NCBI GenBank assembly: GCA_963638555.1
Contig: CAVHQU010000001.1
Span: forward strand, 169,309-233,308
Direction: 5' to 3'
Source of the DNA: a bacterium
GTDB lineage: Bacteria; Bacillota_I; Bacilli_A; RFN20; CAG-826
DNA: 64,000 nt
Made by a program: the position numbers and the translations under genes. The notes beneath the pieces are model-generated. The model was not told the origin of the DNA. It searched no databases and saw only the letters and a program-made list of their open reading frames with translations. Below are positions 3,282 to 63,330 of this stretch, one piece after another (the stretch's first letter is position 1; the number at the start of each line of letters is the position of its first letter).

Positions 3282-3893
3282 ATGAAAGACTTATCTAAAA
3301 CCGTATCAAAAAATTTATCATTGCTTAGAAAAGCTAGAGGGTTAACTCAAGGCCAGTTAGCTGAAAAATTTTCATATTCCGATAAATCGATATCAAAATG
3401 GGAGACGGGCGAAGGCCTGCCAGATATCAACATTCTTTCAGAATTAGCATCTTTCTATGGTGTTACGCTTGACTACCTAATTCAAGAGCATTCAGAAGAA
3501 ATGCTTGAACATGATGGGAAAGTCGACCCAAGAGATATTAGGAGAAACAAAATCATTGTTGTTGCCTTGTCCGTAGTCTTTGTTTGGACTATTGCAGCTG
3601 TAATATATTCCGCTTTAAGAATGGCGAAGATTGATACATGGTCCCCATGGTTGATATATATCTGGGCTGTTCCTGCATCGTTTATTGTTACGCTTTACTT
3701 TGGAAAGAAATGGGGGAGGAAAGAACACATCCTCATTGGCTTAATCTGCTTGTATTGGACATTTGCCTTTGCCTTGTATATAGAACTTGGCATGGATATT
3801 ACAATTGGGTGGAATTTATGGTTCATCGGTCTAATACCTATACCAGCAACCGTAGGAACAGTCTTCTTTGCTCTTTCAACATCTAAAGATTAA
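3282..3893 (+). CDS. XRE-family helix-turn-helix regulator with C-terminal multi-TM domain
   Basis: HTH_3 signature LRKARGLTQGQLAEKFSYSDKSISKWETGEGLPDINILSELASFYGVTLDYLI, followed by about 4 hydrophobic helices. Confidence 0.75.
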   Translation: MKDLSKTVSKNLSLLRKARGLTQGQLAEKFSYSDKSISKWETGEGLPDINILSELASFYGVTLDYLIQEHSEEMLEHDGKVDPRDIRRNKIIVVALSVVFVWTIAAVIYSALRMAKIDTWSPWLIYIWAVPASFIVTLYFGKKWGRKEHILIGLICLYWTFAFALYIELGMDITIGWNLWFIGLIPIPATVGTVFFALSTSKD

Positions 3894-3957: not shown

Positions 3958-4632
3958 ATGGATTCAATTCGTGTAATAAAGGTAAAACAAAGCGTATTTG
4001 CAAATAATAATGCAAGAGCCGCTGAAGTTAGAAAGAAGCTCAAAGAGAAAAATGTCTATCTTGTTAATTTAATGTCCTCTCCAGGAAGCGGAAAAACCAC
4101 ATTCTTGGTTGCCCTTATTAACAAATTGAAGAATGATCTTAGAATTGGCGTTATGGAAGCAGATATTGATGCTACAGTCGACGCAGAAACGATTTCAAAT
4201 AAGACAGGGGTCAAGTCAATTCAGATCCATACCTCAGGAGAATGTCATCTTGATGCTAAGATGGTCGATGACTCATTAGATGGATTTGGCGTTGATGATT
4301 TAGATTTGGTCTTCCTAGAAAACATTGGAAACCTTGTTTGTCCAGCTGAATTTGATACAGGGGCATCCTCTTCTTTCGAGTTGTTATCAATTCCTGAAGG
4401 CGATGATAAGCCTTTAAAATATCCACTTATGTTTACAGTGGCAAATGTTGTTATCTTTACTAAGATGGACGCAATCTCTGTTTTTGATTTTGATATTCAA
4501 AAAGCCGAAGAACGTATCCTTAAATTGAATCCAAACACTAAGTTCTTCCCCGTTTCTGCCAAAACTGGCCAAGGCATTGATGAATTGGCCGCTTATCTTC
4601 TTAAAGAAGTCAAAACTTATCAGGCAAAATAA
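3958..4632 (+). CDS. hypB: Nickel-insertion GTPase HypB (hydrogenase/urease accessory G3E family)
   Basis: Start moved to ATG 3958 (SD gagagg); the track ORF begins at 3868. P-loop LMSSPGSGKTT and the HypB motif ENIGNLVCPAEFD are present, with TKMD in place of NKxD. Confidence 0.85.
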   Translation: MDSIRVIKVKQSVFANNNARAAEVRKKLKEKNVYLVNLMSSPGSGKTTFLVALINKLKNDLRIGVMEADIDATVDAETISNKTGVKSIQIHTSGECHLDAKMVDDSLDGFGVDDLDLVFLENIGNLVCPAEFDTGASSSFELLSIPEGDDKPLKYPLMFTVANVVIFTKMDAISVFDFDIQKAEERILKLNPNTKFFPVSAKTGQGIDELAAYLLKEVKTYQAK

Positions 4633-4686
4633 CTACACACAAAAACTATATTTTCAATATATCTATGGATACGTTTGGAGGCAAGC

Positions 4687-34108: not shown

Positions 34109-34110
34109 TC

Positions 34111-34608
34111 ATGATAGAAAAAAATTACATAATCAGCAAATCTCAGCATTTTAAATGGAAATTCAGAAGTGCTTGGCCATTTTATTTAGTGATGGTTTCA
34201 TCCTTTTTGGCAGCATTTTCTTCTTTTGTTGCTATCGGCTGTAAAATCAATTTAAATCAAATGGACAATTCTTATTTCTTTTTATACATAATCTTCTTAG
34301 TTTGTCTTCCTTTAGGACTATTAACGTTACGTTTAATCATTAATTTTTCAAATAAAATTCTTTTCGAAGATGTCAAAGTAGAAATAGACCCATTCACCAA
34401 AACAATAACCGTCACTAGTAAGGATGACAGGGGCAATGTACTAACGACCATAAATAAAATTGCATATAAAAAGGAAAAGAAAAAATATTTCATATTGGGC
34501 AGAGAATGGGGGCGTTTCTTTTACGTCCCGAAAGCCGGAATGAAGAAAGACGACATTAAAACAATCAGAGCAATAAAACCATTGAAAGTTGAGAAATATC
34601 ATCAATGA
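34111..34608 (+). CDS. Small 2-TM protein B1, YcxB-like (candidate immunity/partner protein)
   Basis: SD aaggag, 2 nt after the A1 stop. Two TM helices, then a C-terminal KKYFILGREWGRFFYVPKAGMKKDDIKTIRAIK block (YcxB-like, from memory). Confidence 0.6.
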   Translation: MIEKNYIISKSQHFKWKFRSAWPFYLVMVSSFLAAFSSFVAIGCKINLNQMDNSYFFLYIIFLVCLPLGLLTLRLIINFSNKILFEDVKVEIDPFTKTITVTSKDDRGNVLTTINKIAYKKEKKKYFILGREWGRFFYVPKAGMKKDDIKTIRAIKPLKVEKYHQ

Positions 34609-36176
34609 GAAATCACAAAATCACAAAAAACATATCTTTAGCTTTTTTATTCATTTTATCATCATTGACGCCCTCAGCAAGAAGTCAAAACCTATCATTC
34701 TTTAGTGGGCAAAAAATAAGCAAAAGATTAGAACTCCAAGCATCTAAAAAGGATGATTCAAATTTTGATTATGAATTTGATACTTCTTCCTCTTTCTCAA
34801 ACAATGGGTCCGACGAATTCGAATCTATGGGATTAAACGATGGAAAACGGTCAGGAGAAAAAATAGAAAATAATAACGGGGAAATTTATGTCACAAAAAA
34901 TGAAAACAATGTTACTAAAAGTGATATTTCTACAGCAACTTATAACGATAGCTGCGAAAACAATGACTCTTTTTTAACCGCTTCAAGTGCTTATGCCGTT
35001 GGCACGAACGATGGTGGAATATATAAACATTGGGTTTGGTGCTATGCAACAATTAGTCAAAAAACTGAAGGCATGCTTTGGTGGAAACAGACCTATATAG
35101 ACAAGGATTTCTATTCTTTTGATGTAGTTTCGGTTGGAACTTTAAAGGTTACTTTAAGTGATATTCCTACTAATTGTGATTATGATCTACGTTTATATAA
35201 AATTGAAGACAAATTAGAATGCTCATATGCCAGTTGTAACTTTGATGATCCGATTGCCTCAAGTGCAAATGCATCGAATACGGATGAGAATGTTTCGATT
35301 TCGGTTAAACCTGGAACATATTACGCTTGTGTCTATTCTTACAAAGACCAAACTTTTGATAACAACAACCCATATAAATTGACATTTGAAGAGGATGTAG
35401 ATGACACAAGGTATGGTTCATATTATTCTATAAATAATGGAAGAAATGATGGAGATTTAGGTGCAGTATGGCGCAGCGACTACAAACCGTTAGGAATTAC
35501 TCCAGTAAACATATCAGAAGAAAACGCCCAAGTAGGTCTTGCAAATTCATCCACTTATCCGTACATAAAGCATTTGATTGATAAATATTCTTCTGACGAA
35601 AAAATTACATACGCCATAGTTTATGTATGGGATGTTGAACTAAGAGCGTTGATACGATCTGCATTACAATTGATATTAGAAGAAATCTACGAAAGAGAGG
35701 AAACATATTTCAATGCATTTAATATAAGTTGGAATGCGGCAAATTTATTTATTTCAATAGGCGGCCTTATTGTAAGCACTATATCTTTGGCTAATATAGC
35801 AACATCGGCTTTATTAACTGGTGCAATAACCGCAACTTCACTTTCGATGGGTTTTATTTCAACAATTTTATCATTTGCTATAGGTTATCAATTCCAAATA
35901 GAAAGACAAGAATTGATAAATTATTTAATAAATGCAATAAGCGCCTTTGAAGTTGGAAAAGGAAGCAATAATAAAGAAGTCGTAATGTTAAAGTTCAAAT
36001 ATAGGTTCATTAAAAAAGAACGTTGGTATTTAGATTGGACTCCATCTTATGATGTAGATGGTCAAAATAGATATAACGAAGATCAAATTACTCATCAATT
36101 GAAAGGAAGTCCAATAAACGGAAGGATAATAGGTTTTCAAGACGAACACACTCTATACAACTTATTAGGATTTTAG
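34605..36176 (+). CDS. Secreted protein A2 (paralog of A1)
   Basis: ATGA overlap with B1. Signal peptide MRNHKITKNISLAFLFILSSLTPSA. Same PPC block (TYIDKDFYSFDV, NCDYDLRLY, PGTYYACVYSY, NPYKLTFEE) and same C-terminal architecture (YPYIKHL, MLKFKYRF). Confidence 0.75.
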   Translation: MRNHKITKNISLAFLFILSSLTPSARSQNLSFFSGQKISKRLELQASKKDDSNFDYEFDTSSSFSNNGSDEFESMGLNDGKRSGEKIENNNGEIYVTKNENNVTKSDISTATYNDSCENNDSFLTASSAYAVGTNDGGIYKHWVWCYATISQKTEGMLWWKQTYIDKDFYSFDVVSVGTLKVTLSDIPTNCDYDLRLYKIEDKLECSYASCNFDDPIASSANASNTDENVSISVKPGTYYACVYSYKDQTFDNNNPYKLTFEEDVDDTRYGSYYSINNGRNDGDLGAVWRSDYKPLGITPVNISEENAQVGLANSSTYPYIKHLIDKYSSDEKITYAIVYVWDVELRALIRSALQLILEEIYEREETYFNAFNISWNAANLFISIGGLIVSTISLANIATSALLTGAITATSLSMGFISTILSFAIGYQFQIERQELINYLINAISAFEVGKGSNNKEVVMLKFKYRFIKKERWYLDWTPSYDVDGQNRYNEDQITHQLKGSPINGRIIGFQDEHTLYNLLGF

Positions 36177-36178
36177 CT

Positions 36179-36661
36179 ATGGAAAATTTAGTAATGGTTT
36201 TAAATGTTAGTGGTTTAAGGAAATGGAAATTTCAATCAGGATGGGGCTACCTAATACCAGCAATTATAGTCATCCCATTTTCAATTTTTATTGCCGTTGA
36301 ACTCATTTTAAGCGTAAATGGTAATATCGAAAGACTTCAAACTGCAAACATATATACATATTGGTACTTCATATCATTATTGTTATTACCATCGTCAATA
36401 ATGCCATATAAGCATTACTCCAAGGAAATGTATGGTAAACAGTTAAAATTGAAAGTTTCATTCGACGAAAAAGTTGTAACCGGGACATTCATGGCAAAAA
36501 ATGGAGATACTCGTTCTAACAAAATAGAAATTGAATATGTAAAAGAATATGTCAAATATTTTAAGATTGGAAGAAGTTTCTACAACTTCTATTTCCTTCC
36601 AAAAAGCAAATTATCTAAAGAGCAATTAGAAGCAATTAGAAGCTTAAAAAAGCCTAATTAG
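36179..36661 (+). CDS. Small 2-TM protein B2 (divergent paralog of B1)
   Basis: Starts 2 nt after the A2 stop. RKWKFQSGW and VKYFKIGRSFYNFYFLPKSKLSKEQLEAIRSLK mirror the B1 blocks. Confidence 0.6.
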   Translation: MENLVMVLNVSGLRKWKFQSGWGYLIPAIIVIPFSIFIAVELILSVNGNIERLQTANIYTYWYFISLLLLPSSIMPYKHYSKEMYGKQLKLKVSFDEKVVTGTFMAKNGDTRSNKIEIEYVKEYVKYFKIGRSFYNFYFLPKSKLSKEQLEAIRSLKKPN

Positions 36662-52093: not shown

Positions 52094-53389
52094 TTAATTT
52101 TTCAAACAACTGATAGGAACAACACAAACCCCATCTTCTCTTCTATAGCATGAACCATGACTCGTTAAAACCATTTTAAATTTTGGCGCCTCATGATTGC
52201 TAGCTACAACCCTTTTCTCAAATAATTTTAAAGAATTAGCTCCTTTTTCTATATTATCGGGGTCTGCCAATTTAATTTCTATTGCACCATATTTGCCATT
52301 TGGCAATTCAACAATGGCGTCTACTTCTTGCCCACTGCTGTCTCTATAGTGTTTAATCGTTGCATCTATAGACTCGGAATATACAGATAAATCTCTGATT
52401 GCAAAATCTTCGAAGAATAAGCCAAATGAATTTAAGTCATTCAGTAGATCGCTTGGATTTATCCCTAAACAAGCAGCCGCAATAGACGTATCAATGAAAT
52501 GATGAGTTGGAGCGTTTCTAACGGAAACAGAGCTTCTCAGATTAAGATTCCAGGCAGGCATATCATAGACAATAAACAAATCCTTCAAAACTTTAACATA
52601 AGTGTCAAACGTATCTTCATCTAGTTTTGATCTATTCCCAGATTCAATAATATCAGATATCATTTTCGTCTTTTTGGCTTGTGTAGATATATTTCTTGCA
52701 TATGATTTTAAAATTAAAGTCAACAGATCAATATTTTTACCTTTTAAAAATAGCGAAAAATCATCATTCTCATCTTCAATCGTGAATAAACCTTTATAAT
52801 AGTTTTTAGTGATACGTATCGCTTGTTCCGGATTGCTAACCTTGCTGGCCAAAGGCCATCCTCCCCTGCAAATTAGATTTGCAATATCGCTCAACGAAAT
52901 AGAATTGTCATAGTCAAATAAATTTTTAAATTCATAATCGTTCTCTTCAAAAAGAGACCTCAAAGAAACAATTCCAAGTGATTCTCCAGACTCATATAAA
53001 GTAAAAGGCTTGAGCGTCATTGAAACTATTCTTCCAGCGCCAGAATGTTGTATTTGTTGTGCACCGACTGGAGTTGTACTTCCAGTGATTATGTATTTTC
53101 CGAAAACATAATCATGGTCCAAATCGCTTTTTATGTAATTCCATATGTCAGGAACTTTTTGCCATTCATCAATCAAATGCGGATACTCGCCAACCAGTGC
53201 GCATCTTGGGTCAGCTTTCGCTAATCCAATGGCATTGGCCGTCTTCAATTCGGTAATCGATTTAGCGTATTGGGTACACATTGTTGATTTTCCGCAAAAT
53301 TTTGGCCCTGTCACCAAAACACAGCCCATTGAACTCAAATTTAATTTCAACGCATCTTCTGCAAGTCTTTTTATATATCTATCTGCCAT
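52094..53389 (-). CDS. AAA_14/DUF4143-type ATPase (COG1373-like)
   Basis: P-loop VTGPKFCGKST near the N-terminus. 431-aa architecture typical of DUF4143 ATP-binding proteins (from memory). SD gaggtg; TATAAT at 53409-53414 on the minus strand. Confidence 0.65.
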   Translation of the reverse strand: MADRYIKRLAEDALKLNLSSMGCVLVTGPKFCGKSTMCTQYAKSITELKTANAIGLAKADPRCALVGEYPHLIDEWQKVPDIWNYIKSDLDHDYVFGKYIITGSTTPVGAQQIQHSGAGRIVSMTLKPFTLYESGESLGIVSLRSLFEENDYEFKNLFDYDNSISLSDIANLICRGGWPLASKVSNPEQAIRITKNYYKGLFTIEDENDDFSLFLKGKNIDLLTLILKSYARNISTQAKKTKMISDIIESGNRSKLDEDTFDTYVKVLKDLFIVYDMPAWNLNLRSSVSVRNAPTHHFIDTSIAAACLGINPSDLLNDLNSFGLFFEDFAIRDLSVYSESIDATIKHYRDSSGQEVDAIVELPNGKYGAIEIKLADPDNIEKGANSLKLFEKRVVASNHEAPKFKMVLTSHGSCYRREDGVCVVPISCLKN

Positions 53390-53440
53390 ATAAGCACCTC
53401 ACATAAAAATTATATTCCTATCTCACTGATAAACAATATT

Positions 53441-53509
53441 ATTTTCGGTGTTTTGAAACTTTTATTTTCGGTGTTTTGAAACTTTTATTTTCGGTGTTTT
53501 GAAACTTTT
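53441..53509. repeat. Three perfect head-to-tail copies of a 23-bp unit ATTTTCGGTGTTTTGAAACTTTT
   Basis: Copies at 53441-53463, 53464-53486 and 53487-53509. Each holds a small palindrome GTTT-TG-AAAC. The array abuts the -35 region of the DUF4143 ATPase promoter. Confidence 0.9.
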
Positions 53510-53515
53510 AAATCA

Positions 53516-53547
53516 TTAAAAAAGAAAAAAGCTCGTTGACCGAGCTT
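53516..53547 (-). terminator. Rho-independent terminator of the 59.2-53.5 kb operon
   Basis: Stem aagctcg/cgagctt with a 5-nt loop. On the minus strand ttttttctttttt follows it. Confidence 0.7.
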
Positions 53548-53548
53548 A

Positions 53549-54250
53549 TCATTTCTTGAAATCTTCGTTTACTTTTTTCTCTACTTCATTGCAAATAACT
53601 TGTAATGAGCAGGAATGGCAATCCATTTTTACCTTATTCATCAAATGATCTAACGCTTTAGTAATGTTTTCACATTTCGTTACAATTGCGCTTAGCTCAT
53701 CGTATTTGTATTCATCAAAAGTAACAAAGATTGTCTTAACATTTTTAACAAAAGGGAGTTCTTTGTATTTGGAAATGAAATAATTTCCAAGCTTAGAAAA
53801 ATCTAAATGATCTTTTTTTAAAGAATTTTTAGAAACCAGAAGGCTTTCTTTTTTATTGAAAGCGGATTCTCTAACCATAACACCATCATAAGCAAAATGA
53901 TATTTCACATAGTCAAACTTACGAATGCTGTTATAAAGGACGTTTCCAGAGCCCATAAGGTCGTTATTAACGCTTGCAACGGTAATCCTCGCATAATTCC
54001 CATCGCCGTTAATTGAATTCAAATCTTGACCTATTAGAAGAATCTCATCATCGAATTCAGAATCAGTTAATAAATCGAGAACAACCCCTTTAAATTGGCT
54101 TGCACCTAATTCAAAGGCTTTTTCATTGCTGAAAATTAGTTGATTGTTATTCTCAATAAATGTTTGATTTTGATTGAGAGTTAGTCTTTTTGCTTCGTAT
54201 TTATTGTTGATTTCATTAACGTCATTAACTAAATCATCAAAAATAAACAT
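53549..54250 (-). CDS. Acetyl-CoA-synthase (CdhC/AcsB) middle-domain-like protein ending in a Cys cluster
   Basis: 233 aa. Colinear by eye with the central part of Moorella AcsB as I recall it: AFEL; D.EILLIGQDL vs DGKIEVIGPDI; LLVSKNS vs LRVSKDA; VKTIFVTFDE vs VQVTIFTDE. It ends in CHSCSLQVIC, where ACS has C-x2-C-x8-C. Confidence 0.55.
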   Translation of the reverse strand: MFIFDDLVNDVNEINNKYEAKRLTLNQNQTFIENNNQLIFSNEKAFELGASQFKGVVLDLLTDSEFDDEILLIGQDLNSINGDGNYARITVASVNNDLMGSGNVLYNSIRKFDYVKYHFAYDGVMVRESAFNKKESLLVSKNSLKKDHLDFSKLGNYFISKYKELPFVKNVKTIFVTFDEYKYDELSAIVTKCENITKALDHLMNKVKMDCHSCSLQVICNEVEKKVNEDFKK

Positions 54251-54252
54251 AA

Positions 54253-54471
54253 CTAGATTTTACGGTTTCTTTTCTTCTTGTCGTAGATCTTTGTTAAAAG
54301 AGGCTCCAAAGAAGAAGTTAATTTCATATCTAAGTTGAAGAAATAGATAATGAACAATAAGCCAAAGAGAGCAATGAATGCGCCAATGACCGTGCAAAGG
54401 ATGCTAATCCACAAAGCCCAGTTCAGATATGGGAAAAGTGTCCAGCTTAAGACAATTAAAGCGGTACCCAT
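54253..54471 (-). CDS. 72-aa two-TM peptide
   Basis: Two hydrophobic helices and a basic tail (KKKRNRKI). Gaps of 2 nt to both neighbouring genes. Confidence 0.5.
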   Translation of the reverse strand: MGTALIVLSWTLFPYLNWALWISILCTVIGAFIALFGLLFIIYFFNLDMKLTSSLEPLLTKIYDKKKRNRKI

Positions 54472-54473
54472 AT

Positions 54474-55280
54474 TTATCTTCCTCCTGCTAAGCCTTTTTG
54501 ACGGGCATATTCAGCAGCACCTAAAGCGCCCATTAATTGAGGATCGATAGGGAGGTTGACAACCTTTAAGTGTAAAACCTTTTCAATCGCGTCTTTTAAG
54601 CCATCGTTTTTAGCACAGCCACCAGTTAAGGTAATGTTATCAACTGCTCCAGCTTTCTTTGCCATGACGAAGCATCTTTTTGCAACTGAGAATTCAATGC
54701 CTGCAGCAATTTCGTCCATTGGTTTTCCTTCACCAACTAATGAGATAACTTCGGATTCAGCAAAAACCGTGCATTGAGCAGTGATAGGAATAATATTCTT
54801 TGCTTTCAAAGAAAGTTTTGAGAAAGTGTCTAAATCCATCTCGAAGGCTCTAGACATCGCTTCAAAGAATCTTCCTGTGCCAGCAGCGCATTTATCATTC
54901 ATAGCGAAATTAAGGACTGTTCCATCCGTATCAACGGCAATGCCTTTAACGTCTTGCCCACCAATATCAATAATTGCTTTGACGTTTGGATCAGTAACGT
55001 GGACACCCATCGCGTGGCAGGAAATCTCAGAAATATTTTCATCCGCAAAAGGAACTTTGTTTCTGCCATATCCTGTGCCAACCAAGTAAGATAAGTCTTT
55101 AGGGGAATTTAATCCTTCGACTTGAACAATTGCTTGATCTAAAGCATCTTGAGCGCTTAAAACGGAATTAATTCTGCTTCTTAAGGTAACATTTGCTACC
55201 ATCTTACCAGTTTCGTCGACAATAACGCATTTTGTATAGGTACTGCCGGAATCACAACCACCAAAATATTTCATATTCAT
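54474..55280 (-). CDS. ATP-dependent activase of 2-hydroxyacyl-CoA dehydratase / benzoyl-CoA reductase type (BcrAD_BadFG, HgdC-like)
   Basis: GGCDSGSTYTKCVI, DIGGQD, DKCAAGTGRFFE and QCTVFAESEVISL, including the cluster-bridging Cys. Confidence 0.85.
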   Translation of the reverse strand: MNMKYFGGCDSGSTYTKCVIVDETGKMVANVTLRSRINSVLSAQDALDQAIVQVEGLNSPKDLSYLVGTGYGRNKVPFADENISEISCHAMGVHVTDPNVKAIIDIGGQDVKGIAVDTDGTVLNFAMNDKCAAGTGRFFEAMSRAFEMDLDTFSKLSLKAKNIIPITAQCTVFAESEVISLVGEGKPMDEIAAGIEFSVAKRCFVMAKKAGAVDNITLTGGCAKNDGLKDAIEKVLHLKVVNLPIDPQLMGALGAAEYARQKGLAGGR

Positions 55281-55288
55281 TTATCTCC

Positions 55289-56836
55289 TTACCATGATTT
55301 TGCATCATCAATAACTTCTAAGCTTGGATCAACAGGTTCTTCTCTCATGACAGAGCGCATATATCTGTTAACTTGATCCCTAACGCCTTGTTTAGAAATG
55401 ACACGTGGGTCCATTAAATCGTGATCGACCCAAACGAGTTTGATACCATGTTCTCTAGCACGTTGTTCAAACATACCATGCATGCCATCGAGAGCTTTAC
55501 AAGAAATGTGTTCCCACAGAATAACCATATCGGCCTTGTAGTAATCGCAGAACTTCCAAAGATCATCAAGTAAGACTTCATAGCCACCATGGGTTCTGTT
55601 TCTCATAATCATCTCTTCATAAAGTTTAGCGATATCGTATATTGCTTGTTCAGGATCATCTTCTGAAATCTCGTCAAAGTAGCAGAGAGAAAGCATATCG
55701 ACTAATGGAACGATTCCCCAGCAGTTTTGAAGCCATGGGAGGAAGTCCGTATAGAATTGAGATTGAACGCCCCAGATGATTGCTCTATGACGCATCTCTT
55801 TGCAAACCATTGCTTTTCTCTTATAAGCTTTTTCAGCAAGCTTTGTAATCTTTCTATCAGCCTTAACGAAGTCATCGGAGCGACCGGCAACAGCCATGTA
55901 TGTTGTTTCAGAATATAAAGCTAAGTTAGCACCAAAGACTTGTGGGTAATCCGTTCTAGACATTTCCATCCAGGATTTACGAAGCCTTGTTTCTTCGTTG
56001 AAGCGTTTAGCACATTTGAAATAGTTATCCCAATTCCATTTTTCACCAGTTTTTTCTTCAATGAATTTGATAGCGTTTCTGATTTCTTGTGCAGCATATT
56101 CTTGAACGCCTTCTTCAGTATGTCTAAGAGGTGCAGCAATTTGGAAAGTAGGAACACCAAATTCTTCATATTTTTTACCCATGATGCCATTTCCCATCAA
56201 AGATCCATCACATGTTGTGTTACATTGAACGGCGCATGCGCCATAAATTGGCATATCTTCGTCAACTGCGCAGCCAGCTTCAGCGGCAGGCATTGGGCAA
56301 ACGTCGCCAGGAATACCCATTTCCTGAAGAACATCAAGATAGTGAGTGACAGCCATTGGATTTAATAAGACAGAGACATATACGGCTGCAGTTTCCCAAC
56401 TAACAGCATATAAGTTAGGGAAACCACACATGACGTGGAACATTTCGTTTTCATCAAGAACAACGCATTTCTTAGAGAATTTTTCATTATTTCCACATCT
56501 TTTATCTGCTTTGAATACTCTCGTTAAAAGTTGAGCAATATCTAGAGCAACCAAATCATATTCAGTATGAGCGATTCTAAGTGCTTCCTTTCTCAAACCC
56601 GTCGTATGTTTATCAATCATCATCGGGACAGCTAGATAGTTAAGCATCCATCTGTATCTAAAGAAACCTTTTAAATTATTTGGCTTAACGATGAATTTAG
56701 CCAACATCCACATGATTTTAAGCCAGCATCTGAAGTCATAGAAAGTGTCTACGAAGCCTCTCCACTCTCTTCTCTTTCTGACTTTTTTTCCGTTATAAAG
56801 CTTTCCTAAGGCTTCGGAACCTACTTTTGCTCCCAT
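55289..56836 (-). CDS. 2-hydroxyacyl-CoA dehydratase family (HGD-D) large subunit with N-terminal extension
   Basis: 515 aa with a Cys-rich segment (CPMPAAEAGCAVDEDMPIYGACAVQCNTTCDGS). Its start shares TAATG with the preceding subunit's stop. Confidence 0.75.
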   Translation of the reverse strand: MGAKVGSEALGKLYNGKKVRKRREWRGFVDTFYDFRCWLKIMWMLAKFIVKPNNLKGFFRYRWMLNYLAVPMMIDKHTTGLRKEALRIAHTEYDLVALDIAQLLTRVFKADKRCGNNEKFSKKCVVLDENEMFHVMCGFPNLYAVSWETAAVYVSVLLNPMAVTHYLDVLQEMGIPGDVCPMPAAEAGCAVDEDMPIYGACAVQCNTTCDGSLMGNGIMGKKYEEFGVPTFQIAAPLRHTEEGVQEYAAQEIRNAIKFIEEKTGEKWNWDNYFKCAKRFNEETRLRKSWMEMSRTDYPQVFGANLALYSETTYMAVAGRSDDFVKADRKITKLAEKAYKRKAMVCKEMRHRAIIWGVQSQFYTDFLPWLQNCWGIVPLVDMLSLCYFDEISEDDPEQAIYDIAKLYEEMIMRNRTHGGYEVLLDDLWKFCDYYKADMVILWEHISCKALDGMHGMFEQRAREHGIKLVWVDHDLMDPRVISKQGVRDQVNRYMRSVMREEPVDPSLEVIDDAKSW

Positions 56837-58026
56837 TATTTTTTGCCTCCTTGAATCTTCTTAATCTCAATGCTTTCAACGAAAGCTTGAACTCTGGTTC
56901 TAATTTGTCCAGATGAACCAACAGCATATGGTCTATCAATAGAGAGAACAGGGTAGTTGTAATCGTCTCTAAGCATATGGGTGCCAGTCATTCTTTCGTA
57001 TGCCCATGGGTCACAGAATTTCATTTGCTCATAAATAATTCCATCGGCATGGTAATCTTTAGCAATTTGATTAACATATTCTTTTCTTTGTCTGAATTTT
57101 GGAAGATTCATATGGCGTGGGCACATGCATGAATGCATGTATTGGGCACATATTTGGGTTAGTACATCTTCATTGTCGTTAAGGATGATTTCTTGTCTTC
57201 CTGGAAGAGAACCGAAACAATATCTGTCAGCAACAACAAGGGCGCCAGATTCTTCAATGAGTTTAATCATATCGACATCATCAACTTCTGATCCGACGAC
57301 AGCAACCTTTGCACGGTATTTCTTTTTTGCATCTGGAACGCGTGTTTTTACTTCTTCAAGAGTCTCCTCAAGTTTATCGATTAATAAGTAATGAGGGCAG
57401 ACGTATGTGCACATGGTGATGATATGGAACTCATATCCAGTGATACGTGGGTTCTCTTCTTTTCTAAATTCACCTAGTTCGGTTATGATGCGGCAAATCT
57501 TGTTATGCTCCTTAACTGCTTCTCTTAAAGCATCATCAGAAACGTCTATTCCAAAATGTTCATGCAAAGAGTTTAAAATCTTCTTGCGGCATTCAGAAAC
57601 GTATAAGTTCAAGCCGTTATCATCGTCCTTCATAGGAACTTCTAGATATTCGTAGAAGAAATTATCTGCTGGCATTGTTTTGAGTAATTCCATGTTTTCA
57701 ACACAGCGATTGATCATTGAACAGCCATCAGGCGTAAAAAGGCAATCAAGATATTGATATCCGCCTTCGATAGCTCTTTCTAATAACGCTCTCGTATATT
57801 CACATAAAAAGGAGGTCATATAGTATGTCCCCATCTCAAGAGAGCCGGTACGTGGAGCTCTTAAACGTGAGGAGAAGCATCCTTTGAGGTTAAGAAGAAC
57901 TTCAGGAATTTGCGAGCATGTCGTGCCAAGGCACTTAAGCCCTTCTTCTTTTGCTTGTCTTACTAGATCATTATTCGCGTTATCTAGTAATTGCTCGAAA
58001 TAATACAAATGTTTTAAATCTTTCAT
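56836..58026 (-). CDS. 2-hydroxyacyl-CoA dehydratase family (HGD-D) subunit
   Basis: 396 aa. Family-typical Cys positions (CLGTTCSQIPE; DGCSMINRC; MKFCDPWAYE). Confidence 0.75.
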   Translation of the reverse strand: MKDLKHLYYFEQLLDNANNDLVRQAKEEGLKCLGTTCSQIPEVLLNLKGCFSSRLRAPRTGSLEMGTYYMTSFLCEYTRALLERAIEGGYQYLDCLFTPDGCSMINRCVENMELLKTMPADNFFYEYLEVPMKDDDNGLNLYVSECRKKILNSLHEHFGIDVSDDALREAVKEHNKICRIITELGEFRKEENPRITGYEFHIITMCTYVCPHYLLIDKLEETLEEVKTRVPDAKKKYRAKVAVVGSEVDDVDMIKLIEESGALVVADRYCFGSLPGRQEIILNDNEDVLTQICAQYMHSCMCPRHMNLPKFRQRKEYVNQIAKDYHADGIIYEQMKFCDPWAYERMTGTHMLRDDYNYPVLSIDRPYAVGSSGQIRTRVQAFVESIEIKKIQGGKK

Positions 58027-58036
58027 TTTGACCTCC

Positions 58037-58804
58037 TTATAATATTCCTAATTTTTCTAATGCAATTTTTGTGTTCTTAACGATATTTGAATCTTCGTTA
58101 AGAGAGAATACTGAATTGCCCTCAACATCCGAGAGCATCATTTCTTTGTCATCTGGAATTACGCTCAATAAGTTTAACGATTCGAGATTAAGTTTATTGA
58201 TATCTACTGTTTCGCTAACACGATTAAGAATCAATCCATCAGTTTCGTACATGACTAATTCTTTAGCAACCTTCTTTATCGTTTTTGTTACTTCAATGCC
58301 TTTCTTAGACGCATCGGAAACAAGAACTAGATGGGTGACCTTCTCCATTACTCTGCGATTAACTTGCTCAATACCCGCTTCACCATCAATAACCACATAA
58401 TCAAAATTATTGGCAAGAAGGCTTATTACTTCTTTGAGATAAGCGTTAACCTTGCAATAACATCCACTCGCTTCAGGACGACCTATAGCGAGGAAGGAGA
58501 TATTGTCTATTTCAACTAAAGCATCAAAGATTTGGTATTTTGCTTCGGAGAGAATTTCCAGAGCTGCTTTTGAGTCTCCATTCTCCGCATGTTCAATGAA
58601 TAACTTTCTTATATCATCTACCGTTGAAGATGAATTAACGCCTAACGCTGTCGCTAATCCAATGGCAGGATCAGCATCAATGGCTAAAATTTTCTTATCT
58701 GGATATTTTTCATGGAGCAATCTAACAGACAAGGCAGAAATTGAAGTCTTACCGACTCCACCTTTTCCACAAAAGGCTAATATAACTGGCTTACTCATAA
58801 TCAT
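58037..58804 (-). CDS. CooC/AcsF-like MinD-superfamily nickel-insertion ATPase
   Basis: Deviant Walker A CGKGGVGKTS, AIDADP and the Cys-x-Cys motif (SGCYCKVN) characteristic of CooC. The start could instead be ATG 58798. Confidence 0.7.
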   Translation of the reverse strand: MIMSKPVILAFCGKGGVGKTSISALSVRLLHEKYPDKKILAIDADPAIGLATALGVNSSSTVDDIRKLFIEHAENGDSKAALEILSEAKYQIFDALVEIDNISFLAIGRPEASGCYCKVNAYLKEVISLLANNFDYVVIDGEAGIEQVNRRVMEKVTHLVLVSDASKKGIEVTKTIKKVAKELVMYETDGLILNRVSETVDINKLNLESLNLLSVIPDDKEMMLSDVEGNSVFSLNEDSNIVKNTKIALEKLGIL

Positions 58805-58995
58805 TTCTCATCTACATGGACAATAACGTATCCATCCACGAGGTTAGCTTTGGAGAGAATACCTTTTATTTCCACCTTTCTTTCCATCAAATCGGTGAAG
58901 ATTAATGAGTTTTGCTTCATTTCAATACTCATAACATTCTTCATCAAGATGTTTTTATCATCTATTTTGTCTTTATAAATCGTTGATAAACACAT
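58801..58995 (-). CDS. CooT-family small nickel-binding protein
   Basis: 64 aa starting Met-Cys (MCLSTIY...). Beta-rich, with the size and pattern of CooT. Its stop overlaps the CooC-like start (ATGA). Confidence 0.6.
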   Translation of the reverse strand: MCLSTIYKDKIDDKNILMKNVMSIEMKQNSLIFTDLMERKVEIKGILSKANLVDGYVIVHVDEK

Positions 58996-59005
58996 ATATG
59001 GTTCC

Positions 59006-59212
59006 TTATTTCTTTAATTCTTTCAAAGCCAATGAAAGAGATTTGTTGCCTTCCTCGAAAGAATTAATCGCATCTTCAACTTCTGCGTAAGCATCAGAAT
59101 TAACATCTTTTAAAGAATTGGCCAAATCTTGCAATTCTTCATTGTGATGTTCATTATGATTAATCATGTAATTAATGAGAGCAATGAGTTCTTCTTTATT
59201 GTTCGTTTCCAT
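59006..59212 (-). CDS. His-rich helical small protein (putative metal-binding)
   Basis: 68 aa: LINYMINHNEHHNEELQDLANSL...AINSFEEGNKSL. Resembles small metal-associated helical proteins of Firmicutes (from memory). Confidence 0.45.
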   Translation of the reverse strand: METNNKEELIALINYMINHNEHHNEELQDLANSLKDVNSDAYAEVEDAINSFEEGNKSLSLALKELKK

Positions 59213-59418
59213 AAAAATGACTCCAGGAATATATCATTATCATTTTATCGATAACTTTTTATCGAAATATACTTTATCACTTTCTGCCTTGCTTTATCAA
59301 GAAAATATCGAACTTTTTTGCGAAATTAGTACAGTTTAAAATGTTTGTTATTGCTAACCTTTTAAAAGGGGTAACCAGATCGCTAATAAATAAGTAAAAT
59401 ACTCAGGAGGTTTATTTT

Positions 59419-61194
59419 ATGAAAAAATGTTTAGGAATATTATTGTCAGGATTGTTTGTCCTTGGAGCGGTTTCTTGTTCAAATGAAACATCATCAAGCA
59501 GTCTTTCAAGTGAAGAATTGAGTCAAAAGAGCGTGAGCGTGTATCTAAATTCGCTTGATAAAACAGCTTCTGTAAATCTTCATTTCTATGATAAGGATGA
59601 ACAAATTCCATATATTGAGATGGATGATGCATTCAGGATCCGTAAAGCGTTATTTGATTCAGGAACAACTTATGAAACGCCAAATAAATCAACATACGAA
59701 ATAGCTAGAGACGGATCTCAATATACCGTCACGATTAACAAACGTGGAACGGCTACATTCGATATTGAAAATCAAACTCTAACAATTCCAAACTTGGGTT
59801 TAGTCCAAGCGTACTCATATAACGACACTCCATATGATATTTTATGCATGGATTCATCCTCTTCTTCGATTCATTATGTAACTCATCAGAAAAATGGCGA
59901 CAGTCTTAGAGCCTATGCATATATGGGCAATGAAATGGTTATTTCCCTTAAAGAATACAGCATACCTGTATATGAAAAAGATAATAAAGCGTATATTCCA
60001 TTAGATCTCTTCAACAACTTCTTTTTAAGCTATACGTATAACAATTTCGTCTATAACGGAGATGCTATATTTACATTCACCGGTCTTGATAATCCATCTG
60101 AAGAATATTTAAATAATTTCTATTTTTGTTCAAATGCTAAAAAGAAAAGAAGCAAAGAATTAGCTGAGTTCTCATACAATTCATTAATGCTCAACCTTAA
60201 TTACCAATACGGACTAAAAGAAAGACATTCATTTGGCGATTTTAGAAAAGAATTTAAAGATTTAGGATTAGAGGATTCTTTAAAATCCACAGACGAAAAA
60301 GAATACATGTCTGGCATATTTAAGTTTATTTACAACGCATTTGGCGATGGCCATTGTTCATTTCAAAGAAGAAGTCCATACTCTACAGCAAACATTTACG
60401 ATGAAGTAAGAGCATCAGCTAAGTCTTACGTCAATATTGGTTATGTTGAATTGATAAAATCATTAACTGAAAATGGAACATTCCGTTCTTCTGCCGCTGA
60501 AACAAATCCAGATTATGGAAAATGCTATTACGAAGACGGAGATACAGCCTATGTTAGATTTGATAAATTTTCTATGTTAAGCGAAATTCCAGATTATTAT
60601 CAAAACGCACCGACAGGTGATGAAACAGATCTATTTGGTGTAATTATATATGCAAATAAAAAGATTAAAGAAAACTCTGCAATTAAAAATGTTGTAGTTG
60701 ATATGGCCACAAACAGAGGTGGAGAAGAACCTTCATTAATATTTGCTCTCGGATGGTTATTAGGCAATGATGCAAGAGTTTCTCTTAAAAATCCTGTTAC
60801 TAACTGCGCATCAACCATTTATTACAATGCTGATGTAAATCTTGACGGGAAATATGATGTCACGAACGATACTCTTGAAGGATATAACAAATTCATTCTT
60901 ACATCTCATTCATCCTTCTCCTGTGGTAACGCATTCCCTTGTTTTGCAAAAGCTAGTGAAAAAGTAAAAATCATTGGTCAAACATCTGGCGGAGGAGCGT
61001 GTCAAGTTTTCCCTCTTGTGACAACGGATGGCACAGTAATCAATATTTCAGGCGGTGGAGTCCTATGTACAGAAAAGAACTCTCATTACGAGGACATTGA
61101 TGATGGCGCCACACCTGACTTCACTATAACCGAAACAGCGAACATATTTGATCGCGCATACACAACAAAGGTCGTTCATTCATTAGTTCTTTAA
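59419..61194 (+). CDS. Lipoprotein with S41 peptidase-like domain (paralog of 10666-12447)
   Basis: Lipobox LGAVSC. Contains FGDGHCS, VVVDMATNRGGEEPSL and IGQTSGGGACQ. SD caggagg. Confidence 0.6.
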   Translation: MKKCLGILLSGLFVLGAVSCSNETSSSSLSSEELSQKSVSVYLNSLDKTASVNLHFYDKDEQIPYIEMDDAFRIRKALFDSGTTYETPNKSTYEIARDGSQYTVTINKRGTATFDIENQTLTIPNLGLVQAYSYNDTPYDILCMDSSSSSIHYVTHQKNGDSLRAYAYMGNEMVISLKEYSIPVYEKDNKAYIPLDLFNNFFLSYTYNNFVYNGDAIFTFTGLDNPSEEYLNNFYFCSNAKKKRSKELAEFSYNSLMLNLNYQYGLKERHSFGDFRKEFKDLGLEDSLKSTDEKEYMSGIFKFIYNAFGDGHCSFQRRSPYSTANIYDEVRASAKSYVNIGYVELIKSLTENGTFRSSAAETNPDYGKCYYEDGDTAYVRFDKFSMLSEIPDYYQNAPTGDETDLFGVIIYANKKIKENSAIKNVVVDMATNRGGEEPSLIFALGWLLGNDARVSLKNPVTNCASTIYYNADVNLDGKYDVTNDTLEGYNKFILTSHSSFSCGNAFPCFAKASEKVKIIGQTSGGGACQVFPLVTTDGTVINISGGGVLCTEKNSHYEDIDDGATPDFTITETANIFDRAYTTKVVHSLVL

Positions 61195-61246: not shown

Positions 61247-61735
61247 TTATTCGAGGAGTCCTTTAATTGTTGTGCCTTTATAGGCAAATGTATACGAAGT
61301 TGAACTTGAAAAATCAACTGTGAATGCGACTAAAACATTTGGATGAGTTATAACTGTCGCATTTTCATCTATTGCATCAATTGTTGTTGTATCTGATCTC
61401 TTAGTTATATAAACCTTTTTGCCTTCAGTTCCAGCAGTGAATTGCCATCCATCAACAATTCCGTACGATGATGTTGTTTTGCCATCAATGGTAACCGTGA
61501 AATCATCTTTAGAAACTGTAACAGCTTTGCCAGTTCTATTTGCGACGCTAAATGTAGTTACGTAAATTGGTGTACTATCAGTTTCGCTAGCATTCATTTT
61601 TTGACAAAATTCACTAGATGTTGAATCGCTCTTTGAGAAAACTATATTTCCTGAATTTCCACCCATGCCATTACAGGAGGCTAACATTATCGGTAATCCA
61701 AGTAATCCGATCATCATTTTGATTGTTTTTTTCAT
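61247..61735 (-). CDS. Small lipoprotein
   Basis: MKKTIKMMIGLLGLPIMLASC lipobox. 162 aa, beta-rich. Confidence 0.65.
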   Translation of the reverse strand: MKKTIKMMIGLLGLPIMLASCNGMGGNSGNIVFSKSDSTSSEFCQKMNASETDSTPIYVTTFSVANRTGKAVTVSKDDFTVTIDGKTTSSYGIVDGWQFTAGTEGKKVYITKRSDTTTIDAIDENATVITHPNVLVAFTVDFSSSTSYTFAYKGTTIKGLLE

Positions 61736-61962: not shown

Positions 61963-63330
61963 ATGAAAAAATCTAATCTTATTTTATTAACATTACTTAG
62001 CACCACATTATTCTCATGCGGAGGAAACGATTCGTTAGATTCCACTGAATCCTCGTCAGCACAAGATGAAATCGTTGATGTTCTTCCTGATGGATATACA
62101 AATTCCGTCAAGGATTATTTGAAGGCATTAAAGAGCATCCACAACTACACAATCTCTGAAACGGTTTCTTCCACTGCAGCTACGTATGAAAACTATATTG
62201 TCGCCAAATATGATACAAAATCCTACTACTATGATTTCGGTTCAAATTCCTATGGATATATTCAATCCGACGATGGCGTGTATGCAGTTAACATCAAAAA
62301 TGACTCTTTAATTGGCGGAGAAATTTATCATGATGATGAAGGGAACGCTTATAAAGATTTATGGGGTCATGATTTCTTCAAAAGCTTTGCTTCATTAGAT
62401 GAGGAACAATTAGAAACAATTCCCGATGGAACAGTTGACGTATCTCTCAAAGGAAAGAAAAACAAACTAGCAATTCTTTCTATATTAGGGCTTGATTCGT
62501 CTTATTATGCAGGCATCGCATCAATGAAAGCGTCAATAAGTTCCAGCAACGCTTTAGGAATTAGCATCGAGATTGAAGATTCATCTGGTGCCACAATCAC
62601 AGTCGATTCAGTCGTATATGCTTTATTAACCACCAAAAACACGGAAATAGATGAATTCCTTGCCAATGGTGGAACATATTACGTTATCGACTCAGATTTC
62701 GCAAAAGCAAGAACTCTTATGAAGGGTAATAACTATACGCATAACTATTACTACAATAAGAAAATCGTTGGTGTTGAATATTTCAACGAGAACTACTACT
62801 TCGTCAACTGGGATTCATCCTATGTTGCTGAAACAGGCCAAATATTAGTTAATCAAGGCCTTATTGGCATCGATCATAAAAAAGATAGCAATGGCAATGC
62901 CTTAAATGGCGCATATCTTGTCACATTGAATAATGGTCAATTTAGCATAAGCCTCTCTTTCTATTACAATGAAGATCCAAACATTCCTACCGTATATCAT
63001 TACCCATCACTTATGTATATGTGGGACAATCCTGAATTCTTTGAAATGGATGAAACCCCATCAGATTTAGACGCATACTTCACAACCGATGACACCATCA
63101 TGATGAATAACTTCATTGAAAACTTCTCAATGTCTAGTCAAGTTGCTGACGTTAATGTCAGATCTCTCTCCATTGGTTGGAAAGATATTGAAGATGATTC
63201 AAACACCTCAAGAATTGTTCGTTTCTGCCTCTCGACAAGTGGAGGAGACGTCACTTATGATTTCTGCAATTTTGGAACGACAAATATCCCTGCATTCGAT
63301 TCGTTCTTAGCAGGTTTATCAGACCAATAA
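61963..63330 (+). CDS. Lipoprotein
   Basis: MKKSNLILLTLLSTTLFSC lipobox followed by a short Ser-rich linker. 455 aa. Confidence 0.65.
   Translation: MKKSNLILLTLLSTTLFSCGGNDSLDSTESSSAQDEIVDVLPDGYTNSVKDYLKALKSIHNYTISETVSSTAATYENYIVAKYDTKSYYYDFGSNSYGYIQSDDGVYAVNIKNDSLIGGEIYHDDEGNAYKDLWGHDFFKSFASLDEEQLETIPDGTVDVSLKGKKNKLAILSILGLDSSYYAGIASMKASISSSNALGISIEIEDSSGATITVDSVVYALLTTKNTEIDEFLANGGTYYVIDSDFAKARTLMKGNNYTHNYYYNKKIVGVEYFNENYYFVNWDSSYVAETGQILVNQGLIGIDHKKDSNGNALNGAYLVTLNNGQFSISLSFYYNEDPNIPTVYHYPSLMYMWDNPEFFEMDETPSDLDAYFTTDDTIMMNNFIENFSMSSQVADVNVRSLSIGWKDIEDDSNTSRIVRFCLSTSGGDVTYDFCNFGTTNIPAFDSFLAGLSDQ

Follow-up and report, generated by a model that had tools for sequence, protein, structure and literature searches.

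A conserved operon of gut and rumen Firmicutes links a benzoyl-CoA-reductase-like protein pair, its putative activase and an acetyl-CoA-synthase-like protein to nickel-chaperone-like genes

Eight genes lie head to tail on the minus strand of a 64,000-nucleotide stretch of bacterial DNA (contig CAVHQU010000001.1, positions 169,309 to 233,308), which is called the window throughout. They raise a simple question: what do genes resembling nickel-insertion factors do in one operon with a protein pair from a superfamily of iron-sulfur (Fe-S) enzymes? In the order in which they are read, from 59212 to 53549, we denote the genes H, T, C, A, B, R, m and X. H, T and C resemble nickel chaperones, A and B are two subunits of the HGD-D superfamily, R is an ATP-dependent activase, m is a small membrane peptide, and X looks like the middle domain of acetyl-CoA synthase (ACS) with the first cysteines of its nickel-containing A-cluster. 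With modest confidence, we favor the explanation that the operon encodes an ATP-driven, low-potential enzyme resembling benzoyl-CoA reductase (BCR), which has an ACS-derived Ni-Fe-S subunit and is matured by its own CooC/AcsF-type ATPase. That nickel is involved at all is the somewhat safer part of this statement, and we regard it as reasonably probable.

The protein on which the answer turns is X. The window protein alone gave nothing significant in Pfam (including the CdhC family, PF03598), in NCBIfam, or in a single-sequence search of the Protein Data Bank (PDB). The family to which it belongs, however, is related to ACS. A profile of the X family retrieved ACS chains from the PDB at E 5e-4, and a broader profile did so at E 1.6e-10. 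The matches always fell over the ACS middle domain (residues ~331-480 of the M. thermoacetica enzyme). Weak matches to Pfam CdhC were given by 17 of 28 family members, the best at 1e-8. The AlphaFold 2 model of X has a predicted local distance difference test (pLDDT) score of 87.5, and its top 21 fold matches in the PDB are all ACS or CdhC chains (E 1.8e-7 to 1.5e-3, probability 1.00); the next match is at E 0.1. The original prediction had called the 233-residue product ACS-middle-domain-like. This description holds for the family profile and for the fold, but not for a Pfam CdhC match of the window protein itself.

X ends in a cysteine motif, D-C211-x2-C214-x5-C220 (Cx2Cx5C). In a 43-sequence alignment that reaches down to ~20% identity, only six residues are invariant: G123, R127, E135, C211, C214, and C220. 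A hidden Markov model (HMM) alignment places residues 43-217 of the X profile on residues 20-192 of M. thermophila CdhC, and profile position 217 is C214. The offset between the M. thermophila and M. thermoacetica alignments is ~317, so that CdhC residue 192 corresponds to Cys509 of the M. thermoacetica enzyme. In ACS, Cys509 is the bridge between the [4Fe-4S] cubane and the proximal nickel ion (PMC10299331). The CxxC of X would thus occupy the positions of Cys506 and Cys509 of the A-cluster. The fourth cubane cysteine of the A-cluster set is absent from X. X offers only C211, C214, and C220, and its chain stops at residue 233. It is not an ACS; it looks like an ACS-derived protein that retains the middle domain and the first A-cluster cysteines. 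The cysteine tail is the sole poorly modeled part of the AlphaFold 2 structure (pLDDT 50-60). This fits a metal site or an interface that is completed by a partner protein. In one natural variant (locus L095, 235-1161), X continues at its C-terminus into a ferredoxin domain of the 2x[4Fe-4S] type.

Which proteins could supply nickel to such a site? The product of C is a MinD-family ATPase whose closest solved relative is CooC1 of C. hydrogenoformans (PDB ID: 3kje; E 5e-15, 58.7 bits), with ArsA (34.5 bits) and MinD (30.9 bits) behind it; the lead of CooC1 over the next solved relative is 24 bits. A deviant Walker A motif (GKGGVGKTS, residues 13-21) falls on the CooC1 P-loop. The GCYC motif, which contains C115-Y-C117, aligns with the QCYC motif of CooC1, where Cys112 and Cys114 form the metal site. 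Both cysteines are invariant in all 68 relatives compared. The Pfam matches of C were to general families only, and no dedicated CooC model of NCBIfam was matched. We assign C as a CooC/AcsF-type ATPase on the basis of these similarities, with a putative role in ATP-dependent nickel delivery. AcsF, an ATPase of the CooC type, is described as inserting nickel into the A-cluster of ACS in the work of Gregg et al. (2016), as cited in PMC10134865.

The product of T matches the Pfam CooT family (PF10133) at 54 bits against a cut-off of 27, with residues 1-59 covering profile positions 1-59 of 60. Its Cys2 is invariant in 44 of 44 operon relatives, and this is the nickel-binding residue of characterized CooT (PMC6006190). 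In the literature, 26 of 111 proteomes with a CooT are likewise without a carbon monoxide dehydrogenase (CODH). The original prediction had recognized a CooC/AcsF pattern in C and a Met-Cys CooT pattern in T; in our searches both proteins fell into these families, and the ligand cysteines are kept.

The small protein H is 48% identical (E 3e-17, BLASTP) to the protein at the same position in a cultured Lachnospiraceae genome, where it is annotated as DUF8180 (PF26551), and 36% identical to the DUF8180 protein of locus L003. H and nine of its relatives gave no match in our copy of Pfam, which may lack PF26551. An HxxxH pair (H19 and H23) is invariant in all 43 relatives, and several of these bear His-rich N-terminal tails. 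The earlier description of H as a His-rich helical protein is apt as to the helix. It is less so as to the histidines, of which the window protein has only three (H19, H22, and H23), and "His-rich" fits the tailed relatives better. We consider H a candidate helper for the binding or storage of nickel, with a role analogous to that of CooJ.

The protein pair next to these genes is of a different kind. Both A and B match the Pfam HGD-D family (PF06050), at 294 and 134 bits, respectively, in agreement with the earlier reading of them as two Cys-rich HGD-D subunits. The best PDB match of A is BzdN (8s02_B), found at E 2.8e-27 with the family profile. Residues C37, C75, C102, C270, C302, and C338 of A align with Cys36, Cys73, Cys100, Cys263, Cys293, and Cys327 of BzdN, which are the six ligands of its [8Fe-9S] double-cubane cluster (PMC11971306). 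All six are invariant in 64 of 64 relatives, and A is predicted to carry a double-cubane cluster of the same type.

The second subunit, B, was modeled by AlphaFold 2 with a pLDDT of 84 and a predicted template-modeling score of 0.87. Its best fold matches are MbdO, the alpha subunit HadB, and BzdO (E 5e-13 to 2e-11, template-modeling score ~0.6-0.78). C180 and C209 align with two ligand-position cysteines of the double-cubane cluster protein (DCCP), and C446 aligns with the cysteine of the S-C-K/R motif of MbdO and HadB. All three are invariant in 66 of 66 relatives, and they form a probable three-cysteine [4Fe-4S] site. From the correspondence of the families, rather than a direct alignment, this site would be equivalent to Cys95, Cys128, and Cys380 of BzdO. 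The alignment with BzdO reached only residues 224-293 of B. No histidine is found at position +3 from C209 (C-D-G-S), in contrast to His131 of BzdO, which is counted with Glu65 and Trp46 among the BCR catalytic residues. Equivalents of C270 and C302 of A are not apparent in B, as judged from a low-probability profile alignment of the two proteins. The N-terminus of B is extended by ~110 residues, and this extension is strongly conserved.

Beyond the cluster ligands, the further invariant residues of B are C372 (66/66), C201 (65/66), C205 (60/66), and H350. We considered these as a nickel site and found no support for it. The profile alignment with A, together with the predicted secondary structure, places C372 and H350 at the N-termini of beta-strands, away from the cluster-binding region, and C201 and C205 on one strand.

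Neither subunit belongs to a characterized subfamily, as far as the equivalog models of NCBIfam can tell. For A, the scores and cut-offs in bits are 143 and 350 (double_cubane, NF040772), 92 and 454 (BzdN, TIGR03190), 89 and 421 (BcrC, TIGR02263), and 86 and 700 (HadC, NF052456). B scores 41 against 350 with the double_cubane model and 22 against a cut-off of 750 with another. The double_cubane model is the top-scoring one for both proteins and stays below its cut-off in each case. An exact-sequence look-up of the 515-residue B returned no record. Taken as a pair, A and B look like BzdN and BzdO, that is, an [8Fe-9S] subunit with a catalytic subunit, rather than like a dehydratase. Its substrate-binding fold, together with an identity of 65-97% among hosts (the one outlier, L055, is at 40%), suggests that B has a defined catalytic job.

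R is an activase of the HgdC type, as had been proposed. It scores 216 bits with the acyl-CoA dehydratase activase model (TIGR00241, cut-off 125) and 192 bits with Pfam BcrAD_BadFG (PF01869), and its identity among all the loci is 80-97%. In 73 of 73 relatives, C131 and C170 are invariant; we take them to be the cluster-bridging ligands that correspond to Cys127 and Cys166 of HgdC. The membrane peptide m, which matches no Pfam or NCBIfam family, varies from 55 to 72 residues among loci and has a conserved motif, YFFNLDMK...YDK(K/R)KR.

All eight open reading frames (ORFs) were found where the original prediction had placed them, and the junctions between them are of the operon type it described (Table 1). 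T and C overlap by 4 nucleotides (ATGA, 58801-58804), and A and B overlap by a single nucleotide (TAATG, 56836). The other gaps are, in gene order, 10, 10, 8, 2, and 2 nucleotides. The single terminator expected after the operon corresponds to a terminator-like hairpin that begins 2 nucleotides past the stop codon of X. Read from 53547 to 53529, it has a seven-pair stem with four G-C pairs and a 5-nucleotide loop, and is followed by TTTTTCTTTTT.

Upstream, a 206-nucleotide gap separates the operon from a divergent gene. This gap holds a perfect palindrome, TCGATAA-AAAG-TTATCGA, at 59248-59265 (minus strand). A promoter-like pair, TTGATA-18-TAAAGT with a TG extension, lies at 59300-59271, with the palindrome just downstream of it; a second pair, TCGATA-18-GATAAT, lies at 59265-59236. 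In 11 of 43 related loci, the same upstream position holds a variant of the palindrome, of the form T(C/T)GATAA-N4-TTATC(A/G)A. These signals are consistent with a promoter and a candidate operator for some regulator. An Rfam scan of 53300-59500 gave no match, and hence no riboswitch in the leader.

Table 1. Features of the operon, its putative control signals, and a distant nickel GTPase gene (coordinates of the window)
Feature	Coordinates	Strand	Basis
H, 68-residue helical protein of the DUF8180 type	59006..59212	-	BLASTP to annotated relatives
T, CooT-family nickel chaperone, 64 residues, Met-Cys start	58801..58995	-	Pfam PF10133
C, CooC/AcsF-type MinD-family ATPase, 255 residues	58037..58804	-	closest solved relative CooC1
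A, 396-residue HGD-D subunit, BzdN type	56836..58026	-	Pfam HGD-D, BzdN alignment
B, 515-residue HGD-D subunit, catalytic type (BzdO/HadB/MbdO-like)	55289..56836	-	Pfam HGD-D, fold
R, HgdC-type ATP-dependent activase ("archerase"), 268 residues	54474..55280	-	TIGR00241, BcrAD_BadFG
m, 72-residue membrane peptide	54253..54471	-	ORF, conserved motif, position between R and X
X, 233-residue ACS-derived protein, proposed Ni/Fe-S-binding subunit	53549..54250	-	profile and fold
Intrinsic-terminator-like hairpin at the operon end	53529..53547	-	stem 7 bp, then TTTTTCTTTTT
Promoter-like sites and candidate operator palindrome	59236..59300	-	sequence motifs
HypB nickel GTPase, ~49 kb from the operon	3958..4632	+	TIGR00073

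Is the arrangement itself meaningful? We scanned one genome per species and found relatives of X in at least 197 genomes, of which 80 loci were fetched. Gene order was counted in the 56 species-level loci that had enough upstream sequence (called complete here), by ORF calling and by jackhmmer searches with the operon proteins. The core C-A-B-R-m stands directly upstream of X in 51 of these 56, and the gene arrangement is thus not due to chance. The synteny of chaperone-like genes with the HGD-D pair, on which the original prediction depended, is therefore found in relatives. H and T are also present in 32 of the 51 full-core loci, as in the window, and the remaining 19 lack them. In 8 of these 19, an IsrA-like oxidoreductase and HypA adjoin the core instead; HypB is also contiguous in L005, L051, and L078, and DUF5692 in L005 and L078. 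We did not take the replacement of CooT by HypA as independent evidence for nickel, because HypA adjoins the IsrA-like gene wherever both were detected.

Median identities to the window proteins are 79% for A, 79% for B, and 89% for R, and 45% for X. In a library of 1.84 billion proteins, X forms 613 clusters at 50% identity, and B forms 1514 clusters at 90% identity; among the 150 X clusters listed, almost all are stand-alone proteins of ~230-250 residues. The carriers are gut and rumen Firmicutes, with Bacilli-like metagenome-assembled genomes (MAGs) closest to the window. Butyrivibrio fibrisolvens 16/4 (FP929036, locus L084), Pseudobutyrivibrio, Roseburia, and the isolates GCA_000702145.1 and GCA_900109005.1 are among the Lachnospiraceae carriers, and Acutalibacteraceae, Ruminococcaceae, and "Fimenecus" also have the locus. 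The G+C content is ~0.39 across A, B, and R (54000-58000), compared to 0.33-0.34 in the flanks. A, B, and R are also 65-97% identical between distantly related Firmicutes. Both observations point to strong constraint on the module, to its horizontal spread, or to the two combined. Many of the "cleanbin" MAG records of loci L008-L035 bear species names from unrelated phyla (among them Bacteroides uniformis, Alistipes communis, Parasutterella, and Faecalibacterium). Their X proteins are 59-74% identical, and their aligned A and B proteins 85-92% identical, to those of the low-GC, Bacilli-like window, and the taxonomic labels of these records look unreliable. For several MAGs the species label is clearly so.

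The most divergent loci keep X with partners of the same kinds. L094, where X is ~20% identical, has C-A-B-R-m-X, the same order as the window core. L093 (7434-16121 of a metagenome contig; X ~22% identical) has a different order, R-R-X-CooC-like-441 residues-HGD-D-80 residues-HGD-D. In this locus the HGD-D proteins are of 382 and 476 residues, the 441-residue protein matches no Pfam family, and a gene for a GMC oxidoreductase closes the series; a MeaB/CobW-like GTPase and TetR regulators are encoded nearby. L092 has R-R-X, and L090 and L091 have R, a 44-residue ORF, X, DUF8180, and CooT. In L093 and in L095, where the gene is at 1181-1978, a CooC-like ATPase lies directly downstream of X. Even among the sampled loci of deep divergence, X is still accompanied by C. 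Some reduced loci are without the HGD-D pair: L003, L004, and L040 have H-T-C-R-X, and L043, L048, and L056 have H-T-C-X. Either the pair is encoded elsewhere in these genomes, or X and the chaperones work without it.

On these grounds, we propose that a member of the superfamily of benzoyl-CoA reductases, 2-hydroxyacyl-CoA dehydratases (HADs), and double-cubane proteins has gained an extra ACS-derived subunit together with its own nickel-insertion machinery. R would act as a homodimer bridged by a [4Fe-4S] cluster, would take an electron from ferredoxin or flavodoxin, and would inject it upon ATP hydrolysis. The electron would enter the BzdN-like [8Fe-9S] double cubane of A, which would serve for storage and relay, and from there electrons may pass to the three-cysteine [4Fe-4S] site of B, which is BzdO/HadB-like, to the metal center of X, or to both. 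For X, we propose a [4Fe-4S] cluster joined to nickel, with a partner subunit perhaps supplying the missing ligands. C would load nickel onto X as AcsF does for ACS, with CooT and the DUF8180 His protein as optional helpers, and m may tether the complex to the membrane. By analogy with the pairing of AcsF and ACS, the most likely nickel acceptor is X, not the HGD-D subunits. As to the substrate, our guess is a small or hydrophobic, unsaturated molecule that is hard to reduce, because of the occasional linkage to IsrA-like alkene reductases and DUF5692 membrane proteins and because of the membrane peptide. The involvement of nickel, its holder, the electron path, the subunit contacts, and the substrate are thus all points that we infer from sequences and models. 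The boldest version of the proposal is a new class of nickel enzyme, in which an ACS-descended subunit with an A-cluster-like Ni-[4Fe-4S] center is loaded by C (with CooT and DUF8180), is poised at very low potential by an ATP-driven, BCR-like [8Fe-9S] pump, and catalyzes a reduction, or a C-C or C-X bond reaction, with which no gene has been credited so far. Such an enzyme would be widespread in gut and rumen Firmicutes. We offer this version tentatively, as less likely than not.

A number of observations weigh against nickel. Many of them would be accounted for by an Fe-S-only enzyme, that is, an ordinary double-cubane or BCR-type A/B/R system in which C, T, H, and X handle Fe-S clusters or zinc, iron, or cobalt; in a variant of this explanation, X is an electron-transfer or structural subunit with a three-cysteine [4Fe-4S] cluster. 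The characterized members of the HGD-D superfamily (HAD, BCR, and DCCP) are all described as Fe-S enzymes. X is without the Cys-Gly-Cys motif that binds both nickel ions in ACS, it terminates 13 residues past its third cysteine, C220, and its H202 is invariant solely among close relatives. The match to Cys506 and Cys509 depends on the end-point of one HMM alignment, with the numbering confirmed for Cys509 only. A profile of the C-terminal 84-100 residues of X retrieved only designed coiled coils from the PDB and no ACS, and for this reason we can only infer the correspondence of these cysteines. The fusion of X to a ferredoxin suggests plain electron transfer. MinD-family ATPases include Fe-S carriers, and CooC1 has been crystallized with Zn at its CxC motif. 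In 11 of the 56 complete loci, C is the only chaperone-like gene, with CooT, DUF8180, and HypA all missing. Against the Fe-S-only enzyme, the CxC ATPase is clearly nearest to CooC1, and the literature searched gives CooC and AcsF no role other than nickel insertion. CooT with its Cys2, which is invariant here, is known there solely as a nickel-binding protein, and His-tailed DUF8180 proteins go along with it. X descends from a nickel enzyme and keeps the position of the nickel-bridging cysteine. The production of BzdNO in E. coli (PMC11971306) cuts both ways. It counts against our proposal, but since BzdNO with its [8Fe-9S] cluster was made in that host, the dedicated maturases of the operon need another explanation than this cluster. 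We judge the Fe-S-only enzyme to be unlikely.

Two other alternatives were considered. In the first, A/B/R would be an ATP-driven reductase devoted to maturation or reactivation. It would build a nickel center on X, or activate it reductively, for use by a separate enzyme, such as an IsrA-like reductase, in analogy to RACo for the corrinoid protein and to the nitrogenase-like CfbCD in F430 synthesis. This would agree with the 8 loci, of the 19 without H and T, where IsrA-like and HypA genes adjoin the core (with HypB and DUF5692 in some). The HypA and HypB genes of the "type II" loci always adjoin the IsrA-like gene, their possible client, which is a further point against our proposal. IsrA homologues have been proposed to be nickel enzymes that travel with HypA and HypB (PMC10134865). 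The small size of X and its low-confidence cysteine tail are also as expected of a carrier or docking element. On the other hand, in 43 of the 51 full-core loci, the window among them, no IsrA-like gene lies within 10 kb. HGD-D and activase genes are not listed among the neighbors of 988 IsrA homologues at a co-occurrence of at least 20% (Kronen et al., PMC10134865), and the fold of B is that of a substrate-binding, catalytic subunit and is extremely conserved. Such a machine seems improbable to us. A mere accident of neighborhood, in which the CooC- and CooT-like genes work for a canonical CODH/ACS encoded at another place in the genome, with the HGD-D genes unrelated to them, is scarcely credible. 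CODH is indeed common in this group, being found in 198 of 379 gut Lachnospirales genomes, and the chaperones may have a second client elsewhere, which also weighs against our proposal. However, the junctions are of the operon type, with the 4-nucleotide overlap of T and C and a gap of 10 nucleotides to A. The order is the same in 51 of 56 species-level loci, which come from both Bacilli-like and Clostridia hosts and have unrelated flanks, and the association outlasts gene reordering in the deeply divergent L093. No acsB-like ORF was found within 10 kb in L001-L086.

The surroundings of the operon are consistent with its independence from classical nickel enzymes. No known nickel enzyme (hydrogenase, CODH, or ACS) is present among the large ORFs of the window, and no ACS-like ORF of >300 residues is found in the window or, within 10 kb, in L001-L086. 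The earlier statement that the window has no cooS, full-length acsB, corrinoid protein, or hydrogenase gene is in line with these results. Among 145 neighboring ORFs, only TetR regulators, IsrA-like reductases, AAA_14 ATPases (6 of the 145), GDSL lipases, and rubrerythrin are recurrent, and the 25 commonest families include no CODH, ACS, hydrogenase, or nickel transporter. CODH was not found beside CooT in the large ORFs of the window, in the annotated loci, or in the top flanking families.

The orphan hypB gene of the window had been suggested to encode a further maturation factor. It is a genuine HypB, with 234 bits for the TIGR00073 equivalog (cut-off 121), and shares 56% identity with the HypB encoded first in the L005 operon, hypB-IsrA-like-hypA-C-A-B-R-m-X. 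Its role as an accessory factor for the operon is possible, but the link is weak. The operon-linked HypB, which in relatives stands beside IsrA-like and HypA genes, may serve the IsrA-like reductase instead. The window yielded neither hypA, hypCDEF, nor hydrogenase genes, nor an IsrA-like gene (Fer4_20/Pyr_redox_2, ~940 residues) with an adjacent HypA. One candidate, at 9501-10610, was retrieved as "ISR" by jackhmmer and rejected, as it is UDP-galactopyranose mutase. The hypB gene itself is flanked by an XRE-type helix-turn-helix regulator (3282-3893) and by a 257-residue ORF without family match (4675-5448).

Some other features of the window were recorded. A tandem repeat at 53439-53510 consists of a 23-bp unit (TTATTTTCGGTGTTTTGAAACTT, plus strand) in 3.1 perfect copies. 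It separates the operon terminator from the following minus-strand gene, which encodes an AAA_14/DUF4143 ATPase (52094-53389), and may be a regulatory region of the ATPase gene. The gene divergent from the operon, at 59419-61194, encodes one of two proteins of 591-593 residues with S41 peptidase domains (the other is at 10666-12447). It has a lipoprotein-type signal and is followed by lipoprotein-like ORFs at 61247-61735 and 61963-63330. The S41 and lipoprotein-like ORFs fit a wall-less or reduced-genome, Bacilli-like host. A tandem duplication at 32519-36661 comprises two PPC-domain proteins (529 and 523 residues), each followed by an ORF of ~160 residues (34111-34608 and 36179-36661).

Few classes of nickel enzyme are known, and each is mechanistically important. 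In one conserved operon, an ATP-driven "archerase"/double-cubane pump is joined here with the scaffold of the ACS A-cluster and with a maturase of the CooC/AcsF type. If nickel is truly involved, the operon would add to the known nickel enzymes and would show the ACS fold in a new use, apart from the Wood-Ljungdahl pathway. Double-cubane enzymes, whose natural substrates are mostly unassigned, would gain a physiological context, and the "orphan" CooC, CooT, and HypB proteins in genomes without a classical nickel enzyme nearby would be explained. With at least 197 species, including cultured Butyrivibrio and other Lachnospiraceae, the locus may stand for a significant activity of the gut and rumen microbiome to which no gene has been assigned so far. 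The component families are already known. Their combination in one operon is new to the literature searched, and a full-text search found no description of a cluster of CooC/CooT, HGD-D, activase, and CdhC-like genes.

The closest known systems each account for a part of the operon. The class I BCRs BzdNO and MbdON (PDB IDs: 8s02, 9g87, and 9gai) are likewise heterodimers of two HGD-D paralogues, with six [8Fe-9S] cysteines in the smaller subunit, as in A, a substrate-binding fold and a three-cysteine site in the larger, as in B, and an ATP-dependent partner of the BcrAD_BadFG type. They differ in having two activase genes, whereas the present operon has one, as in dehydratases and in the DCCP reductase, DCCP-R; L093 and L092 have two, as in BcrA/D. 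B is also distinguished by its N-terminal extension, its extra invariant Cys and His residues, and the lack of a histidine at +3 from C209, and the operon adds CooC, CooT, DUF8180, the membrane peptide, and the ACS-derived protein. The literature searched on the BCR/DCCP family makes no mention of CooC or nickel. DCCP and DCCP-R from C. hydrogenoformans (PDB IDs: 6eno and 7yyl) share the superfamily, the six ligand cysteines (in A), and the ATP-dependent activase partner, and the physiological substrate of DCCP is likewise unassigned. However, DCCP is a homodimer with a double cubane in each subunit, whereas here only A keeps the six ligands.

ACS (AcsB/CdhC) with AcsF resembles the X-C pair in the middle-domain fold and profile, in a CxxC that would fall on the first two A-cluster cysteines, and in the CooC-family ATPase encoded alongside. 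In contrast to ACS, X has no N-terminal CODH-binding domain and almost no C-terminal A-cluster domain, and CODH, the corrinoid protein, and the methyltransferase did not turn up near it. In the CooC-CooT-CooJ set of CODH operons of the Rhodospirillum rubrum type, too, a CooC-type ATPase with a CxC site is accompanied by a CooT that has Cys2 and by a small helical protein bearing histidines. The present operon differs in that no cooS turned up in it, elsewhere in the window, or in the flanks that were sampled, and in that CooT and DUF8180 are missing in ~37% of complete loci; the DUF8180 protein is likened to CooJ by role. The putative isoprene reductase operon isrA-hypA-hypB of Acetobacterium wieringae (Kronen et al. 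2023, PMC10134865) provides the last parallel. Genes for IsrA-like, HypA, HypB, TetR, and DUF5692 proteins are contiguous with the core in L001, L005, L051, L068, L078, and others. The window, in contrast, has neither an IsrA-like gene nor hypA and only the distant hypB, and an HGD-D/activase partner is not mentioned in PMC10134865, in which the word "dehydratase" does not occur. Both operons nevertheless unite an Fe-S redox enzyme with nickel chaperones where no classical nickel enzyme is evident.

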